Assembly (NCBI GenBank): GCA_048885925.1
Contig: JBHLLG010000009.1
Coordinates: 1-64,000 of the forward strand
Reading direction: 5' to 3'
Length of the DNA: 64,000 nt
Origin: Candidatus Hermodarchaeota archaeon
GTDB taxonomy: Archaea > Asgardarchaeota > Lokiarchaeia > Sigyniarchaeales > SOKP01
The notes under the pieces were generated by a model. That model was not told the origin of the DNA, searched no databases, and saw only the letters and a program-made list of their open reading frames with translations. Below are positions 1 through 42,638 of the stretch, one piece after another (the first letter of the stretch is position 1; each line of letters begins with the position of its first letter). The position numbers and the translations under genes were made by a program.

Positions 1-233
<233 letters not shown>

Positions 234-569: not shown

Positions 570-1580
570 ATGTTTAAAATGCATCTAAAAGATAAAATTG
601 GAATACATTTGGACCAAATAAAGCAACTTAAAGGCGTAGAGAATGCTGTTCTAACTCAGCGAGATGGTAATCCTATTCAAGCTACCGGCGTATGGTTTTC
701 TAAAGATGAAATTTTCAATGTAAGTTCTGCAACAAGTGCTATATTTAATGTAGGGATTCATTTACATCCAAAAGATTTAAAATACATTTTAATAGAGGGT
801 AAAAAAGCAAAAATATTAATTGCTCCATTAAATAGTCCGGTACATGAATCCTTAAATAAAATACTACAAACTCAGGGGATTTTAGATTATAATCATGAAT
901 ATTTTATCGCAATTACAGCTCAGCCAAATATCAATTTAGGAGGTATTTTTTTACAAACGAATGAATGTTTAAAAAAAATTAAAACAACTCTAATAACATC
1001 GGGAGAATGTTTTAAACCACCTCTAATTCAGTTTAATAATCAAAAAATTCAAAGAATCATCGAAGGTTTTAATATTAAAGAAACAGAGAACTTTGATCTG
1101 CATTTATCTTCATTTTCGATCAGTTTTTCTGAGACGATATCATTAGAATTAAGGAAAGTTCTAAGTAATATCTCTTTAACGATTCCTGATTTAAAATATG
1201 CATTTATTACAATTGAGGGCGGTTTTATTGCATCTCAAATTTTAAAAAAAGTTGAAATCGATTCTGAAAAATTAGATAAAATCTCAGCAATGAGTTATTC
1301 ACTTTTTCAGACAGCCAATAGATGTGCTTGGTTATTAAAAAAAATGCAAGCTGAAAGAATTTTACTTGATTGTAAAGATTCCTTCCAGTTTATTGATGGA
1401 TTAGGAAAAGCTATTTTTAGTACAGAAATTGGTAAACTTAGACAAAAATTAGGATTAATAAGATTAATACTTCCGCAATTTTCAAAAAAAATTAATAACC
1501 TTATTAAAGAAGCATCAGAAGTTCAAGACCATCGAATATTTGATATTAAAAGAATGCTAGGAGAGTTAATAATAAAGTAA
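570..1580 (+). CDS. Tandem Roadblock/LC7 (MglB-like) domain protein
   Basis: Two repeats of the roadblock pattern: GVENAVLTQRDGNPI..VSSATSAIF and DLKYAFITIEGGFIAS..KISAMSYSLF. Confidence 0.85.
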   Translation: MFKMHLKDKIGIHLDQIKQLKGVENAVLTQRDGNPIQATGVWFSKDEIFNVSSATSAIFNVGIHLHPKDLKYILIEGKKAKILIAPLNSPVHESLNKILQTQGILDYNHEYFIAITAQPNINLGGIFLQTNECLKKIKTTLITSGECFKPPLIQFNNQKIQRIIEGFNIKETENFDLHLSSFSISFSETISLELRKVLSNISLTIPDLKYAFITIEGGFIASQILKKVEIDSEKLDKISAMSYSLFQTANRCAWLLKKMQAERILLDCKDSFQFIDGLGKAIFSTEIGKLRQKLGLIRLILPQFSKKINNLIKEASEVQDHRIFDIKRMLGELIIK

Positions 1581-2489
1581 TTGGGTGAAATTATGAATTT
1601 CTTTGATTTTTTAGATAAATTAAAGCGAAATTATAATTCAATAATTCTTTATTGTCTATTAGATAGAATTCCAATTGTTATATTGGGAGATGATTCAGAT
1701 TATATTGATAACATTTTAATCGAACTTTCTGAACTTGTTCATTTTCGTAAAGATTATATCTTTTATACTGATTTTATCTCAAAAATTGAGTATGAAAATC
1801 TTATTTCAAATGAAGAAATAGATTATAATTATCAACGGGCGCATATTAGATGCCCTTGTAATGTTTCTTTCAAGGCATTAAATCAATTTGATAAAATTCA
1901 ATCATGGCTTATTGGATTAAAAAACTCAGAGGAAAAAGAGCAATTAAATTATATCAAAAATCTGATTAAAAAAAAAGCAAATGAGATTCTATATATTATA
2001 ATTACTCCTAAAGATATTTACATAGATTTAGAAGGAGTAAATATAAAATCAATAGATTTAACATTTGAACAAAATATTTTCAAAAAAATTTCTCAAGATA
2101 CTGAAAAATCCATTGCAAAGATGAAGAGAGTATTATCAGATAAAATAACTACCAATAAACTTGATAAAGATTTAGTAAAAACATTGTTAGATTTTGATCA
2201 AGAAAAAAGCGAATTAAAAAAGAATATTTTTAAAAGAGAAATTCAAAATTTCTATTCTGGTTCAAAAAGAGCATTTTTTATTTTCTCTAGATTACAATTA
2301 TTAAATAATTTAGAAGTTCAAACAAGTATTGGAAGTAAAACGCTCCTAGAAACAATAGATTATGAAGAAGCATCAATAGAAAGAATAATTTCTTTTATAA
2401 AAAAAGAATGGGGTGAAAATTATTCAGATTTAATTGAAGATGGTAAAAAAGCATTCATTGGTGATAAATTAGTTTCACTTTGGGGTTAA
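1581..2489 (+). CDS. Hypothetical protein, cDENN/folliculin-C-like N-terminus
   Basis: ILYCLLDRIPIVILGDDSDYIDNILIELSEL resembles the core DENN helix-strand-helix; abuts the roadblock gene; start may be ATG 1593. Confidence 0.55.
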   Translation: MGEIMNFFDFLDKLKRNYNSIILYCLLDRIPIVILGDDSDYIDNILIELSELVHFRKDYIFYTDFISKIEYENLISNEEIDYNYQRAHIRCPCNVSFKALNQFDKIQSWLIGLKNSEEKEQLNYIKNLIKKKANEILYIIITPKDIYIDLEGVNIKSIDLTFEQNIFKKISQDTEKSIAKMKRVLSDKITTNKLDKDLVKTLLDFDQEKSELKKNIFKREIQNFYSGSKRAFFIFSRLQLLNNLEVQTSIGSKTLLETIDYEEASIERIISFIKKEWGENYSDLIEDGKKAFIGDKLVSLWG

Positions 2490-2496
2490 AAAAATT

Positions 2497-3090
2497 ATGA
2501 TTTTTAATTATGAAAATAAAACTTTACAAATTAAAATAGTATATTATGGACCTGCGATGTCCGGAAAAACAACATCTATAAAAGCTCTCTTTTCTTATTT
2601 TAAAAAAGAAAATAAAGTAAAATCAATTGATAGCTCAGTAGGACGTACATTATTTTTTGATTTTGGCGTTTTAGAATTCAAGGGAACCGTATGGGGTGTA
2701 AAATTTTTGATTTATTCCGCAACGGGTCAAGATTTTTATGCTAGCACTCGACCAGCAACCTTAAATGGAGTAGATGGAATAATTTTTGTTGTTGATTCTC
2801 AAATCGAATGTTTACAGTATAATATTAGATCTTGGAATGAATTAAAAACATTATTTGGTCAGGAATTTTATAATATTCCAATTGTGATTTCATTTAATAA
2901 GTGTGATCTATTAGAATTAGAATCTTTAGAGAAAAAGGAATTTTTATCATATATAGAATTTAATAGATTTAAAAGCATAACATTAGAAAGAACAGTAGCT
3001 ATAAGGGGAGAAGGTGTATTAAATTCATTTAATCAATTAATTAAATTTTTATTTCCACAAATGAACATTAATTTAAGTGTAACTTACTAA
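2497..3090 (+). CDS. MglA-like small GTPase
   Basis: KIVYYGPAMSGKTT, GRTLFFDF, ATGQ, GVDGIIFVVDSQ, NKCD. Confidence 0.9.
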   Translation: MIFNYENKTLQIKIVYYGPAMSGKTTSIKALFSYFKKENKVKSIDSSVGRTLFFDFGVLEFKGTVWGVKFLIYSATGQDFYASTRPATLNGVDGIIFVVDSQIECLQYNIRSWNELKTLFGQEFYNIPIVISFNKCDLLELESLEKKEFLSYIEFNRFKSITLERTVAIRGEGVLNSFNQLIKFLFPQMNINLSVTY

Positions 3091-3287
3091 TTTTTATTGT
3101 TATTCTTCTTCTCAACTTTCACATACATATTTTTTGATATTCTTTTTATATATCCCTGTAAATAAAATTGTTTAAGTAAATTTCTGACTTTTCTAACTTC
3201 TAAAGCATCAATTCTTAAAATGCTCATTAGTTGAAATATTGAAAATTGTCTTGGTAAATTATTTTTTATATTGCTATATAAGCCCAT
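3087..3287 (-). CDS. Small winged-helix-like protein
   Basis: 66 aa, VRNLLKQFYLQGYIKRISKNMY wing-like motif. Confidence 0.6.
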   Translation of the reverse strand: MGLYSNIKNNLPRQFSIFQLMSILRIDALEVRKVRNLLKQFYLQGYIKRISKNMYVKVEKKNNNKN

Positions 3288-3389
3288 TATTAATTCACGT
3301 TATTTAATTTAAATTTAATCAAAAAAATGAAGATGAATTTTTATACTTTTTTTAAAATATTAAAAAGTTATAAAGCGGAGTTTAGGTTT

Positions 3390-3474
3390 TTGTAATCCTC
3401 AAAGTAACTATAACTTATCATCCCTACTTAGAGTAGATCATTATTGTTTAGTTTTTCTCATCGAATTTTTACAA
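3390..3474 (-). ncRNA. Box C/D guide sRNA, predicted target LSU rRNA helix 69 (A1913, E. coli numbering)
   Basis: Minus strand: C-like TCGATGA, D' ATGA, CTACT/AGTAG hairpin, C' ATGATAA, guide AGTTATAGTTACT, D TTGA; flanking TTGTAA/TTACAA stem; guide complementary to GUAACUAU(A/G)AC. Confidence 0.75.
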
Positions 3475-3585
3475 CCTTAATGAACTCCTTATATATTTAT
3501 GAATAAAAATTTAGTTTAAGATTTAATTAACAAAAAACTAAAATCATATATAATTTTAAAAGATTATTCGAAAGCCATAAAAAAC

Positions 3586-4272
3586 TTAAAATTCGCGAAA
3601 ATCTTTGAAATTATCTCCAATTGGGGCCTCTCCATCACCATATATTTGATATAATCCTGTTCTTCTAGCACATTCCGAAAAACTACGATAAACGTTTTTT
3701 CTTTGCTCATATAAAGCACAAGATCTATAGATTATAGGATTCCAAATATATAATTTATGATCAGGCTCATACAAAAGTTTTTCATCTTTTAATACTTGTT
3801 TAAAATCTTCTTCCCCTATTACTTCCGTAAGATCTTGTTTATTAAGCATGATTATAAGGGGAATCTCTTTTATCAATTTGCCTCTAGTAACATTCTTCAA
3901 TTCTTTTAAAGATTCTATATTATCTTCAAAGAATTGAGTTTGCGAATCAACAGTAAATATAACTCCATCAGTTCCCTTGAAAATTTTTTTTCTTAAAGGA
4001 GAAAACCTTCTTTGACCAGCAACAGTATAAACATGGTAAAATACTTTTCCTCTACTCTTTTGTTTTGTTGATTGAAATATTCCTCTATCGAAATAAAGGG
4101 TCGATCCACTAGCCATTGAGATTTTTGTTAGATTTCCTGTAGGTTCAATATCTTTTTCATTTTCTTTTGTATATCTATATAAGGTGTCTACTATAGTTGT
4201 TTTTCCCGATCCCGCCATACCCCAATAGAGGATTTTTATATATACCTTATGATCTGCTGTAAATCGAACCAT
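3586..4272 (-). CDS. MglA-like small GTPase (second paralog)
   Basis: KILYWGMAGSGKTT, STLYFD, YTVAGQ, GTDGVIFTVDSQ, NKQD, SCA. Confidence 0.9.
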   Translation of the reverse strand: MVRFTADHKVYIKILYWGMAGSGKTTIVDTLYRYTKENEKDIEPTGNLTKISMASGSTLYFDRGIFQSTKQKSRGKVFYHVYTVAGQRRFSPLRKKIFKGTDGVIFTVDSQTQFFEDNIESLKELKNVTRGKLIKEIPLIIMLNKQDLTEVIGEEDFKQVLKDEKLLYEPDHKLYIWNPIIYRSCALYEQRKNVYRSFSECARRTGLYQIYGDGEAPIGDNFKDFREF

Positions 4273-6115: not shown

Positions 6116-6226
6116 GCTTCTGTAGTGTAGTTCGGTCAATCTAACCTTTTTTCTATAAAATTTGGTTAGGATTAAGCATTTGAGGCTCTCACCCTCGAGA
6201 CCCGGGTTCAAATCCCGGCAGAAGCA
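6116..6226 (+). tRNA. tRNA-Glu(CTC) with 36-nt D-arm intron (6140-6175)
   Basis: Acceptor GCTTCTG/CAGAAGC, anticodon arm TGAGG-CTCTCAC-CCTCG, T arm CCGGG-TTCAAAT-CCCGG; BHB-type intron boundaries. Confidence 0.95.
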
Positions 6227-6319
6227 TTGATAAATTTATATTAAATATTATTCAAAACTTAATTTCAATGAACAAAAGATTAAAATGAAATCTAGAAAAA
6301 TTCTATTTCATTATATTAA

Positions 6320-6685
6320 TTATTTCTCTAAAGGAAGTTTATTAAGAATGTCAAAACAAGATGTTAAAATATTTATATGGGTTTTAATAAGCGAAATTTG
6401 AGTTTCCTTTCTTAATTTTTGCGTAATAAATTGAATTTTTTCTAATAAGACATCTTTTAATAATGATAATACTTCATTTTGACCTTTTGTAATTTGGTCT
6501 TCATTATACTTTAATTTTGATTTTTTAATTTTATTATCTTGAGGATAAGAATTGTCTTCAATTATAACTTCTCTATTACAAGTTGGACAGAAGGTATTTC
6601 CATTTTTATTTCGAAAAATTGGATTATTACAAACAGGACAAGCTAAATTTAACATTGTATTTCCAGATCTAAGAAGATCTGCCAT
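6320..6685 (-). CDS. UPF0148 / Sjogren autoantigen-1-like Zn-ribbon protein
   Basis: MADLLRSGNTMLNLACPVCNNPIF...FCPTC. Confidence 0.88.
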   Translation of the reverse strand: MADLLRSGNTMLNLACPVCNNPIFRNKNGNTFCPTCNREVIIEDNSYPQDNKIKKSKLKYNEDQITKGQNEVLSLLKDVLLEKIQFITQKLRKETQISLIKTHINILTSCFDILNKLPLEK

Positions 6686-6770
6686 TTTTTTTATGTTTTC
6701 GTTAATTTTTATCCCTGGTCGTTCTAAATTAAATTATTTATTTTACTAAATAAATATTTCTTATAATAGT

Positions 6771-6965
6771 TTATTCCTTTTCCTTAATTTTTAATAAGTT
6801 TACAATATATCCTGAGATTCTATTTCTCAAGTGCTTTGAATCTACTTCAAGATATTTATCCAATAATTTTTTATTTTTTTCAAAATCGGTTGTAAACACA
6901 TTTGGGTATCTATTTATTAATTCTTTTGAAACATTTTTAATTAAAATAGTTCGAACTTTTCCCAT
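6771..6965 (-). CDS. rps17e: 30S ribosomal protein eS17
   Basis: MGKVRT..FTTDFEKNK..SKHLRNRISGY. Confidence 0.97.
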   Translation of the reverse strand: MGKVRTILIKNVSKELINRYPNVFTTDFEKNKKLLDKYLEVDSKHLRNRISGYIVNLLKIKEKE

Positions 6966-7027
6966 TTCTATTACAAATTTTATTCATTTCTTATTTTGAA
7001 ATTAAATATTTGGTAAAATAAATTTTT

Positions 7028-8296
7028 TTGGAATTATCGAGGTTTTTATACATAAAATTAGAGATATTTAGTGTGAAAAAAAAATATCTTCTTATTTTTC
7101 CATTACTAATCTTAATGAATCTTTTAAGTGTAATCCATTTTGCTAACGGATTTTACTGTAATTTAAATTTCCTAAATACTAATAAAATTGAATATTTTAT
7201 TGATGAAGGAATTAAAATTAATGCTTCCTGGCAATTAGACTATAATATTAATAATGAAATCGCGTATGTTCAAGTTCAATTGTTTGATGAATTTGACAGA
7301 TGTGTCTGGAATTCTTCTGAATATGATGAAATCGGGATTTTTGTAAAAAATTGGACTTTGGAATTAGAAAATTTAACATATAATTTTAATAATAATTCTT
7401 TCTTCCTCTCTATAAAATTTTTCAGTTTCTATTTTCAAATTGATACAACTAATACAATTTGTACTTTTTTAGATACAATTAAAATTATGATAATTAAAAG
7501 AGAACCTTTATGTCAATTAACTGGATATAGAGACCACATAGAATACGGGGAAAGCTTACAAATTAAAGCAAAATTTTATGATGAATTATCAGAAAATAAT
7601 ATAAATTTTATCAATCAAACAATAGAATTTCTAACAACATTTAATAGTTTAATAATATATCAGTACAATCGAACTGTGAATGAATCGGGAATGGTTATTT
7701 TATATATTTCTTCTTTTTTACATTTAAAGATAGGACAAAATTTTATGATTTTTACACTTAGAAATAATAAAATATATAATGATTCAAGATTTATTTACGG
7801 AATTTTTGTCGAGAAAAATCCTATCTATATTGATATTTTACAGTTTACAAATGTATTAAAAGAAAAAGAAGATTTAGAATTAAAATTGCGTTATTATTAT
7901 TATTTCAATCAAAATCAAACATATCTTGCAGATTATTTGATTATTATTAAGATTTTTCACATAAGTTCTTTAATTTTTATTCAAGAATTTAAAACAGACA
8001 AGTTTGGGAATTTATCAGTCATAATTCCTCAAAAAGATTTTAACTTTAATCCAAAAATAGAGGAATTGACTATAAAAATAATTTTCAACGGGACTTCTTA
8101 TATTGGAAATAAAACTTTATTATTTAACCTTATTATAAATCAAGACACAATTATAAATATAAAAAAATCATTTCAAGTAAATTTCTTTGTTTTCTTATCG
8201 ATATTGATTATAATAATAATTTTTATCATGATAGCTATAAATAACAATAGAAATAAATATGAAAAACTATTATCCGATTTAGTGATAAGATATTAA
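7028..8296 (+). CDS. Beta-rich secreted/membrane-anchored protein
   Basis: Signal-like KKKYLLIFPLLILM (likely start GTG 7073), several NxS/T sequons, C-terminal TM helix. Confidence 0.7.
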   Translation: MELSRFLYIKLEIFSVKKKYLLIFPLLILMNLLSVIHFANGFYCNLNFLNTNKIEYFIDEGIKINASWQLDYNINNEIAYVQVQLFDEFDRCVWNSSEYDEIGIFVKNWTLELENLTYNFNNNSFFLSIKFFSFYFQIDTTNTICTFLDTIKIMIIKREPLCQLTGYRDHIEYGESLQIKAKFYDELSENNINFINQTIEFLTTFNSLIIYQYNRTVNESGMVILYISSFLHLKIGQNFMIFTLRNNKIYNDSRFIYGIFVEKNPIYIDILQFTNVLKEKEDLELKLRYYYYFNQNQTYLADYLIIIKIFHISSLIFIQEFKTDKFGNLSVIIPQKDFNFNPKIEELTIKIIFNGTSYIGNKTLLFNLIINQDTIINIKKSFQVNFFVFLSILIIIIIFIMIAINNNRNKYEKLLSDLVIRY

Positions 8297-38594: not shown

Positions 38595-38669
38595 GGACCT
38601 ATAGCCTAGCCTGGATAGGGCGTCGGACTTCTAATCCGAAAGTCGCAGGTTCGAATCCTGCTAGGTCCG
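38595..38669 (+). tRNA. tRNA-Arg(TCT)
   Basis: Acceptor GGACCTA/TAGGTCC, TCGGA-CTTCTAA-TCCGA, GCAGG-TTCGAAT-CCTGC. Confidence 0.97.
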
Positions 38670-42564: not shown

Positions 42565-42638
42565 TGGGAAAGGGGGGCTTTGAACCCCCGACCTCACGGT
42601 TATCAGCCGTGCGCTATACCAGGCTAAGCCACTCTCCC
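42565..42638 (-). tRNA. tRNA-Ile(GAT)
   Basis: Minus strand GGGAGAG..CACGG-CTGATAA-CCGTG..GGGGG-TTCAAAG-CCCCC-CTTTCCC-A. Confidence 0.96.

Follow-up and report, generated by a model that had tools for sequence, protein, structure and literature searches.

Archaeal box C/D small RNAs (sRNAs) include dual guides directed to helices 68–71 of 23S ribosomal RNA (rRNA) (Dennis et al. 2015, PMC4644070; Lui et al. 2018, PMC6009581). Known guide hotspots lie in helices 69 and 71 (PMC4644070, PMC6009581), and in hyperthermophiles dense predicted sites surround A1912 (PMC4644070). In Pyrobaculum, both guides fall within 100 nucleotides (nt) in about 45% of the sRNAs (PMC6009581). On the eukaryotic side, yeast 25S Am2256 is guided by snR63 and Gm2288 by snR75 (PMC5699541), and the human equivalent of the former, A3739, by SNORD46 (PMC6461891, PMC7229835). 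As archaeal C/D guides turn over fast and exact sites are seldom common between lineages (PMC7994747, PMC6009581), it is hard to link eukaryotic small nucleolar RNAs (snoRNAs) to archaeal ones. The present analysis concerns an Asgard genome, Candidatus Hermodarchaeota archaeon GCA_048885925.1, of which positions 1–64,000 of contig JBHLLG010000009.1 were analysed (this whole stretch of 64,000 nt is called the window). On its minus strand, at about 3385–3476, or at 3377–3488 when the outer stem is included, the window carries an element that is very likely a box C/D guide for the ribose methylation of A1913 of 23S rRNA (Escherichia coli numbering). Mesophilic Asgard lineages have, to our knowledge, had no earlier survey for such RNAs.

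Read along the minus strand, the element begins with the outer stem, GGAGTT (3483–3488) pairing with AACTCC (3377–3382), the place of which inside the mature RNA is uncertain. There follow the 5' arm of the terminal stem (GG plus TTGTAA, 3469–3476, with TTGTAA at 3474–3469), three unpaired bases, and TTC (3463–3465), which is the 5' side of the Watson-Crick stem of the terminal kink-turn and has its partner in GGA (3396–3398). Directly after TTC comes the 3-nt bulge GAT (3462–3460), then GA, and box C is ATGAGAA (3455–3461), a degenerate form that reads ATGAAAA in most of the genus. The 13-nt D' spacer AAACTAAACAATA (3442–3454), a decayed second guide, leads to box D' ATGA (3438–3441), which directly abuts the stem of the hairpin TCTAC-TCTAA-GTAGG (3423–3437). 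This hairpin lies between D' and C' and forms the Watson-Crick stem of the internal kink-turn; after a 3-nt bulge 3' of it comes box C' ATGATAA (3415–3421), followed by the 12-nt D guide GTTATAGTTACT (3403–3414), the complement of the helix 69 loop, by box D TTGA (3399–3402), a variant of CTGA, and by the 3' arms (3385–3398), made up of GGA (3396–3398), TTACAA (3390–3395), a bulge AAA, and CC (3385–3386). Most of this layout had been proposed in a first-pass annotation made from the letters alone, and was found where it had been placed: the complement of plus-strand 3403–3415 (AGTAACTATAACT) directly 5' of TTGA (3402–3399), the C' box (3421–3415), the hairpin (3437–3423), the D' box (3441–3438), and the nested stems TTGTAA/TTACAA (3474–3469/3395–3390) and GGAGTT/AACTCC (3488–3483/3382–3377). 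No open reading frame (ORF) of at least 40 amino acids was found to overlap 3288–3563.

In both kink-turns a 3-nt bulge separates a Watson-Crick stem from a GA that faces another GA, and their GA/GA cores do not vary. In the terminal one, the TTC/GGA stem and the GAT bulge are followed by GA (3459–3458) opposite the GA of TTGA, and the latter GA directly precedes GGA on the 3' strand. The internal C'/D' motif is formed by ATGA, the hairpin of 5 base pairs, the 3-nt bulge and ATGATAA, with the GA pairs followed by a T-T pair. For box C the first-pass annotation had read TCGATGA, a register that finds no support in the alignment of 27 genus copies: its key G is the first base of the bulge, and the base before ATGA is G in 20 copies, A in 5 and T in 2, while the ATGA of box C itself (A31, T32, G33, A34) is invariant in 27/27. 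Because the preceding base varies, and because the TTC/GGA stem abuts the bulge GAT and then GA, the box has to be ATGAGAA. Invariant in all 27 copies are also box D' (A51, T52, G53, A54) and six positions of box C' (A71, T72, G73, A74, T75, A76), and box D keeps T91, G92 and A93 throughout the genus alignment. TTGA is the usual box D in the window's family and CTGA that of other families. Where box D begins with T, position 6 of box C is A, whereas G is found at this position in most CTGA lineages (the Hod/Heimdall, Jord/Frey and Borr types and the locus L152; L121, L089 and L091 are exceptions), and in the window the two positions are still pairable, A with T. Relatives in other classes, titled Hod- or Heimdallarchaeota, have canonical boxes, ATGATGA and CTGA. 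The spacers measure 12 nt between C' and D and 13 nt between C and D'.

The D guide decides what the RNA is directed to. Because the genome's own 23S is absent from the assembly, the target pairing rests on the 23S of relatives, for which 39 other genomes of the same genus were searched: genome G029 has one complete 23S and genome G061 two full-length ones, of which L035 was used, as the second 23S-like match, L043, differs around helix 69 and may stem from another organism. At helix 69, the 23S of G029 and L035 reads GGGAGTAACTATAACTCTC, and all positions of the window's D guide (12/12) form Watson-Crick pairs with this loop in G029. Helix 69 is the best site for this guide in the whole 3381-nt rRNA of G029, and 0/2000 shuffled guides reach its score. 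In 27/27 genus copies the D guide has at least 11 of 12 pairs with a Watson-Crick fifth pair, and the position that varies adjoins box C'. Guide position 1 pairs with 1909 and position 5 with 1913; five bases upstream of box D stands a T, which pairs with A1913, the second A of GTAAC. The first-pass annotation had arrived at A1913 by the same fifth-base rule, and this holds; the pairing with 23S that it had suggested as a check is complete with the same-genus 23S.

That this nucleotide is the one methylated in eukaryotes had been stated in the first-pass annotation, and published tables and the 23S sequence agree with it. E. coli 1909, 1915 and 1917 correspond to yeast 2252, 2258 and 2260, with A at yeast 2252, and Haloarcula 1956 and 1958 correspond to E. 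coli 1915 and 1917 (PMC2584109). The two loop U's one base apart fix the register, and the targeted A is therefore E. coli 1913 and yeast 2256 (Am2256 of snR63, human Am3739 of SNORD46). With a constant offset from yeast, compared by hand, the 23S of G029 carries the expected base at yeast 2258, 2260, 2264, 2266, 2278, 2280, 2281 and 2288, and the G targeted by the D' spacer, which will be discussed below, is yeast 2288 (G1945). Both sites are listed as methylated in human 28S rRNA (A3739 and G3771, 32 nt apart; PMC10657414), and Dictyostelium has both as well (PMC8817022).

Some 23S sequences of relatives deviate near the site. Compared with G029, L035 (G061:C48) has about 30 additional bases between CTCTCTTAA and GGTAGCC, right behind the helix 69 stem, an insert that may be either an expansion or what is left of a small intron. 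The 23S of genome G180 (L171) has the helix 69 loop TATGAC, not TATAAC, and the guides TCATAGTTAC of six genomes (G068, G072, G146, G156, G158, G160), matched when one mismatch was allowed in the guide pattern, would pair perfectly with a TATGA loop, which may be a further case of co-variation between guide and target. In six genomes of the Hod/Heimdall-type family f16, a helix 69–71 query gave no 23S match.

Also the folded parts of the element are conserved. In a search with the basic local alignment search tool (BLAST) against 60 relatives, the 141-nt region matched 26/35 same-genus genomes at E<1e-23 and 82–92% identity, and no strong match was found outside the genus. In the alignment of the 27 genus sequences (mean column identity 89%), there is little or no variation in the four boxes, the D spacer and the stems, and the flanks diverge. 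Of the cells of the proposed structure 92.5% are paired in the genus, as opposed to 39–57% when the partners are slid by 1–3 columns. By element, the TTGTAA/TTAYAA part of the terminal stem is paired in 98.1% and its two GG/CC pairs are present in 27/27 and 25/27 copies, the TTC/GGA stem is paired in 98.8%, the D'-C' hairpin in 99.3%, with one double change from A-U to G-C, and the outer stem in 76.6%. Several pairs are G-U in most of the 27 copies: pair 28:95 in 25, pair 55:69 in 26, and pair 20:100 in 21, the latter being A-U in 4 and G-C in 2. On the plus strand these would be C-A mismatches, and it is therefore the minus strand that makes up the RNA.

A covariance model built from the genus alignment (R1) found copies beyond the genus, and the resulting phylum alignment of 26 sequences from several classes has 89.1% of the cells paired, versus 48.9% in shuffles and 39–46% with slid partners. 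Two-sided changes occur in 192 cells, compared with 59.6 +/- 6.6 in shuffles, they affect all 22 pairs, and 0/500 shuffles reach the observed score. The D'-C' hairpin is paired in 98.8% across the phylum, with two-sided changes at all 5 pairs, and the outer stem in 75.2%, with two-sided changes at all 6 pairs in this model-fitted alignment. Being fitted to the model, the phylum alignment leans towards the structure; the stems and the internal hairpin are credible because the effect is large and because the stem sequences differ between lineages. The 10-nt core of the guide is invariant across the phylum while the stems change their sequence between classes. Folded as a single sequence, the element has a z-score of -2.2, and the structure of minimum energy pairs both guides with each other. 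By the alignments, the minus-strand element is recognisable as a conserved structured RNA with box C/D guide layout.

A second guide, overlooked in the first-pass annotation, is decayed in the window and intact in relatives. The D' spacer has CTAGACAAGG as its end in 17/27 genus copies, where it is joined to CCTTGTCTGGT of helix 71 by 10 Watson-Crick pairs and one G-U pair, and the fifth pair in those 17 copies falls on G1945, 32 nt downstream of A1913. Helix 71 is the best rRNA site for the intact D' spacer of the genus, with 128/2000 shuffles scoring equally somewhere. Stronger support than from these shuffles comes from the way in which the D' spacer co-varies with the helix 71 of its own lineage: where the window's genus has CCTTGTCTGGT in the 23S and ACTAGACAAGG as D' guide, genome G065 has CCTTGTCGGAC and GTCCGACAAG, genome G306 CCTTGCCGGAT and CTGGCAAGG, and genome G180 CCTTGCCGGAT and CCGGCAAG. 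As the D' spacer of most relatives targets G1945, the ancestral RNA was a dual guide. The Hod/Heimdall, Jord/Frey and Borr types are examples of lineages with an intact D' guide. The D' spacer of the window differs by three G-to-A/T changes and has no better target in 23S, with 1933/2000 shuffled guides matching the 23S of G029 equally well or better; also the group of G029, G005 and G025 has a D' spacer with three mismatches to helix 71. With its D' spacer decayed, the RNA would probably act as a single guide in the window's genome. In two further loci, L162 (titled Candidatus Lokiarchaeum ossiferum, RNA at 7858–7971 on the minus strand) and L154 (titled 'uncultured archaeon'), the terminal stem, C, C', the D guide and D are kept, there is no recognisable D' guide, and an AT-rich, hairpin-like stretch stands in its place, a layout that is reminiscent of the eukaryotic U46.

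As to which archaea carry the guide, the pattern TGA-N4-TTATAGTTAC-N-YTGA occurs in 128/399 genomes of the phylum, with 0 matches of the reversed control. It is found in 85/133 genomes of the window's family (f1), in all members of three further families (f16 22/22, f21 6/6, f28 5/5), in 5/14 of f2, and in none of f13 (0/31) and f31 (0/86). With one mismatch allowed, the number rises to 178/399, and as the reversed control also matches a fair number of genomes, only families with all members matching were accepted in this search: f9 (3/3), f25 (5/5), f26 (3/3) and f27 (4/4) are gained, f31 having just 2/86. The CTGA form of the pattern was also run against 185,579 bacterial and archaeal species, each represented by a single genome, and gave 49 stretches, of which 34 are Asgard-titled, 5 titled 'uncultured archaeon', 1 Thermoplasmata and 9 titled as bacteria. 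The Asgard titles comprise Heimdall-, Hod-, Prometh-, Jord-, Frey-, Borr-, Sif-, Atabey- and Thorarchaeota as well as Lokiarchaeum ossiferum. The whole sRNA layout is present in 40/49 stretches, namely the 34 Asgard-titled ones, the 5 of 'uncultured archaeon' and one titled as a bacterium. This last record (L138, titled Candidatus Deferrimicrobium sp.) agrees letter for letter at the sRNA locus with G056, which belongs to the class of the window, and is probably a mis-binned contig. The Thermoplasmata record (L129) has two matches inside a repeated stretch, and like the other 8 bacterial records it has neither boxes nor stem; these matches were put down to chance. A perfect 10-nt core in the A1913 register together with the full layout was thus found in Asgard-type records only, in a scan that is blind to guides with mismatches or other spacing, and supplements of archaeal surveys may list others. 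The RNA family is larger and older than could be seen from the window, and in the genome of the window it is partly decayed. Two copies of the guide occur in some genomes of family f1 (G221, G258 and G273, on two contigs each in the latter two), and in G221 (G221:C77:38581-38688) the starts of the two matches are separated by 86 nt and the C' boxes differ, which resembles the outcome of a tandem duplication.

From these data, a mechanism can be proposed that follows the archaeal C/D particle. By its sequence the RNA can close the terminal stem beside a kink-turn that ATGAGAA (box C) forms with TTGA (box D), a second kink-turn is formed by box D' (ATGA), the hairpin and box C' (ATGATAA), and the 12-nt C'-D spacer is perfectly complementary to the helix 69 loop. 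L7Ae should bind both kink-turns, Nop5 and fibrillarin should assemble on them, and the 2'-OH of the nucleotide at the fifth guide pair, A1913 (yeast Am2256, human Am3739), would be methylated. In most relatives the D' spacer may do likewise for G1945 in helix 71 (yeast Gm2288), and an ancestral dual guide could also have held helices 69 and 71 together during folding. The proposal of an unannotated minus-strand C/D guide sRNA, as made in the first-pass annotation, has the support of the pairing, both kink-turns, the stems and the conservation.

There are several observations that weigh against a functional methylation guide. The boxes are degenerate, as had been said at first sight: box C agrees with the consensus RUGAUGA in 5/7 positions and box D with CUGA in 3/4. 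The C-D' spacer has 13 nt instead of 12, and the D' spacer of the window forms only 7 Watson-Crick pairs and one G-U pair with helix 71 of G029, with 3 mismatches over 11 positions. Just 6 cells show two-sided changes in the genus, which is too shallow for more. Rfam covariance models, a check of the kind suggested earlier, did not recover the RNA: at E up to 10, no snoRNA or sRNA family matched at its position in window positions 3200–3650 or in 10 representative loci, and no C/D family, SNORD46 included, matches the window RNA or nine relatives. No RNA run was found to contain the stretch, and four metatranscriptome runs, from studies in which the DNA occurs, gave no match to 3250–3650, results that say nothing on expression either way. 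Finally, the own assembly lacks not only the 23S but, although rated 95% complete, also Nop5 and fibrillarin.

Some of these points would fit an RNA that serves as a folding chaperone or placeholder on helix 69 during assembly of the 50S subunit and that does not methylate at all, with degenerate C/D boxes that no longer position fibrillarin. In Pyrobaculum there are conserved pairings that seemingly go without modification, and a chaperone role of dual guides has been discussed there (PMC6009581), and boxes C (ATGAGAA) and D (TTGA) off consensus together with a decayed D' guide would agree with such a role. A pure chaperone would, however, hardly explain why the fifth pair is Watson-Crick in every genus copy and the 12-nt spacing exact, why both kink-turns keep their GA/GA cores unchanged and position 6 of box C can still pair with position 1 of box D, and why the same guide recurs, in an unaltered register, in relatives whose boxes are fully canonical. 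This explanation is thus unlikely, and a methylation guide is the better reading.

The missing proteins have to be considered for another alternative, that the gene is a decaying relic in a genome that has lost its methylation machinery, so that the RNA is disused. L7Ae was found in the genome (78 bits, genes on contig C2), and in the same genus Nop5 and fibrillarin are adjacent and nearly always present (Nop5 in 34/35 genomes, full-length fibrillarin in 33/35), so that the closest relatives do have the machinery. The loss would be mirrored by the three G-to-A/T changes in the D' guide and by the situation at the expected place of the two genes: on contig C76 (~6209-7708), next to a dihydroorotate dehydrogenase gene, there is a phage-integrase-family gene along with DNA that is unmatched in 5 relatives, which suggests an integrated element at this break. 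But RNase HII, which adjoins fibrillarin in G029 and was found in 14/14 control genomes, is missing from the assembly too, and contig C12 ends exactly at the flank of the Nop5/fibrillarin locus as judged by G029 (end at base 2). Since RNase HII is missing with them and the flank is a contig end, an assembly gap would explain all three absences, and a gap beside an inserted element is the simplest reading of the missing genes, a true loss being less likely. With the D guide, the four boxes and all stems intact in the window copy, a relic is very improbable.

The sRNA is flanked by two genes of Arf-family small GTPases, at 2497–3090 on the plus strand and 3586–4272 on the minus strand, and by a gene of a Roadblock/LC7-domain protein at 570–1580, and also a 66-amino-acid ORF without family is among its neighbours. 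The genes from 570 to 4272 have the appearance of a eukaryote-like signalling cluster, in which 1581–2489 is a 302-amino-acid ORF with a weak match to an archaeal integrase. That the genome is Asgard-like, as had been supposed, is borne out by these Arf-like GTPases and the Roadblock gene and by the Asgard lineages named among the carriers. The weakest alternative, a cis-acting L7Ae-binding kink-turn in the untranslated region of a neighbouring messenger RNA (mRNA), or a chance AT-rich hairpin, with a merely coincidental helix 69 match, can be dismissed as most improbable: L7Ae-binding kink-turns are known in archaeal mRNA leaders (PMC5539422, PMC6298567), the bare 11-mer is no rarer in the genome than by chance (3 matches versus 7 for the reversed control, not significant alone) and the fold z-score is modest, but the neighbours are small GTPases or unassigned ORFs and not L7Ae, the RNA has two kink-turns and two spacers and not a single kink-turn hairpin, its guide core stays constant while the stems change across classes, the composite pattern had no control match in 399 genomes, and the D' spacer tracks the changes of helix 71.

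As to the wider surroundings, the sequence immediately upstream of the outer stem is AT-rich and TATA-like, and a scan for bacterial-type promoters and terminators gave 7 promoter-like sites, with 7.6 expected, and 0 terminators, which is uninformative for an archaeon. The contig starts inside a 16S rRNA gene (window 1–232, minus strand, 5' end at 232), and the sRNA lies ~3.1-3.4 kb upstream of 16S on the same strand. In 3/3 same-genus relatives (L176, L177, L178) the contig also ends inside 16S, ~3.1-3.4 kb downstream of the sRNA. Co-transcription of the sRNA with 16S is unlikely, because opposite-strand genes intervene in the window. There are two transfer RNA genes in the window, at 38595–38669 (plus strand) and 42565–42638 (minus strand).

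Taken together, the RNA is a box C/D sRNA, and thus of a known kind, that is absent from Rfam and for which no published description was found. In the whole window, Rfam at gathering thresholds has no family at the position of the RNA, and the literature on Asgard C/D sRNAs gave no description of it, although supplements of surveys could name a non-Asgard A1913 guide. Archaeal sRNAs typically have a length of 50–70 nt. The window RNA, with ~90-112 nt, differs from them in its length, in the extended terminal stem, in a true hairpin that closes C'/D', in the degenerate boxes C and D of the window's family, and in its hosts, which are mesophilic Asgard lineages. It shares with them the order C-guide-D'-C'-guide-D, the kink-turn cores, the 12-nt C'-D spacer and the fifth-base rule, and the two targets of the Asgard RNA, 32 nt apart, are like those of archaeal dual guides. 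An archaeal C/D sRNA on helix 69 is also known in the haloarchaeal Gm1950 guide and Pyrococcus sR41 (Grosjean et al. 2008, PMC2584109), whose predicted target, however, is 1909, four nt upstream of the Asgard target 1913 (PMC2584109).

That degenerate boxes such as TTGA and ATGAAAA can persist under selection matters for sRNA gene finders, particularly in AT-rich genomes. More generally, one guide RNA has been kept across many Asgard lineages, and it targets two intersubunit-bridge nucleotides, in helices 69 and 71, both of which are methylated in yeast, Dictyostelium and other eukaryotes. This conserved guide hints that the modification of A1913 is older than the eukaryotes, and bears on the question which ribosome modifications predate them. 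The first-pass annotation had considered the RNA a functional counterpart of the eukaryotic snoRNA, and this is right as far as the same nucleotide and the use of the D spacer are concerned, without extending to a match of any Rfam model. Like SNORD46 (U46), snR63 and Neurospora CD33, the Asgard RNA is directed to the A1913 equivalent by its D spacer (PMC7229835, PMC2780460), and it has a similar length as U46 with its 98 nt. U46 differs in that it is without recognisable C'/D' boxes.

As for the second site, the Asgard D' spacer aims at the equivalent of the G1945 site of snR75, U15 and Neurospora CD7, and CD7 also uses its D' spacer (PMC2780460), the difference being that eukaryotes have a separate snoRNA for this site whereas the Asgard RNA unites both guides in one molecule, with the D' guide decayed in the window. 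It is tempting but rather doubtful to regard an Asgard dual guide as the archaeal ancestor of both SNORD46/snR63, by its D guide, and U15/snR75, by its D' guide, which would later have been split. If this were true, a snoRNA lineage could be traced from Asgard archaea to eukaryotes by target site, guide side and phyletic distribution, and both the helix 69 and the helix 71 methylation would date from before eukaryogenesis. What the two sides have in common is at any rate the assignment of the guides, as in fungi the A1913 site is guided by a D spacer and the G1945 site by a D' spacer, just as predicted for the Asgard archaea.

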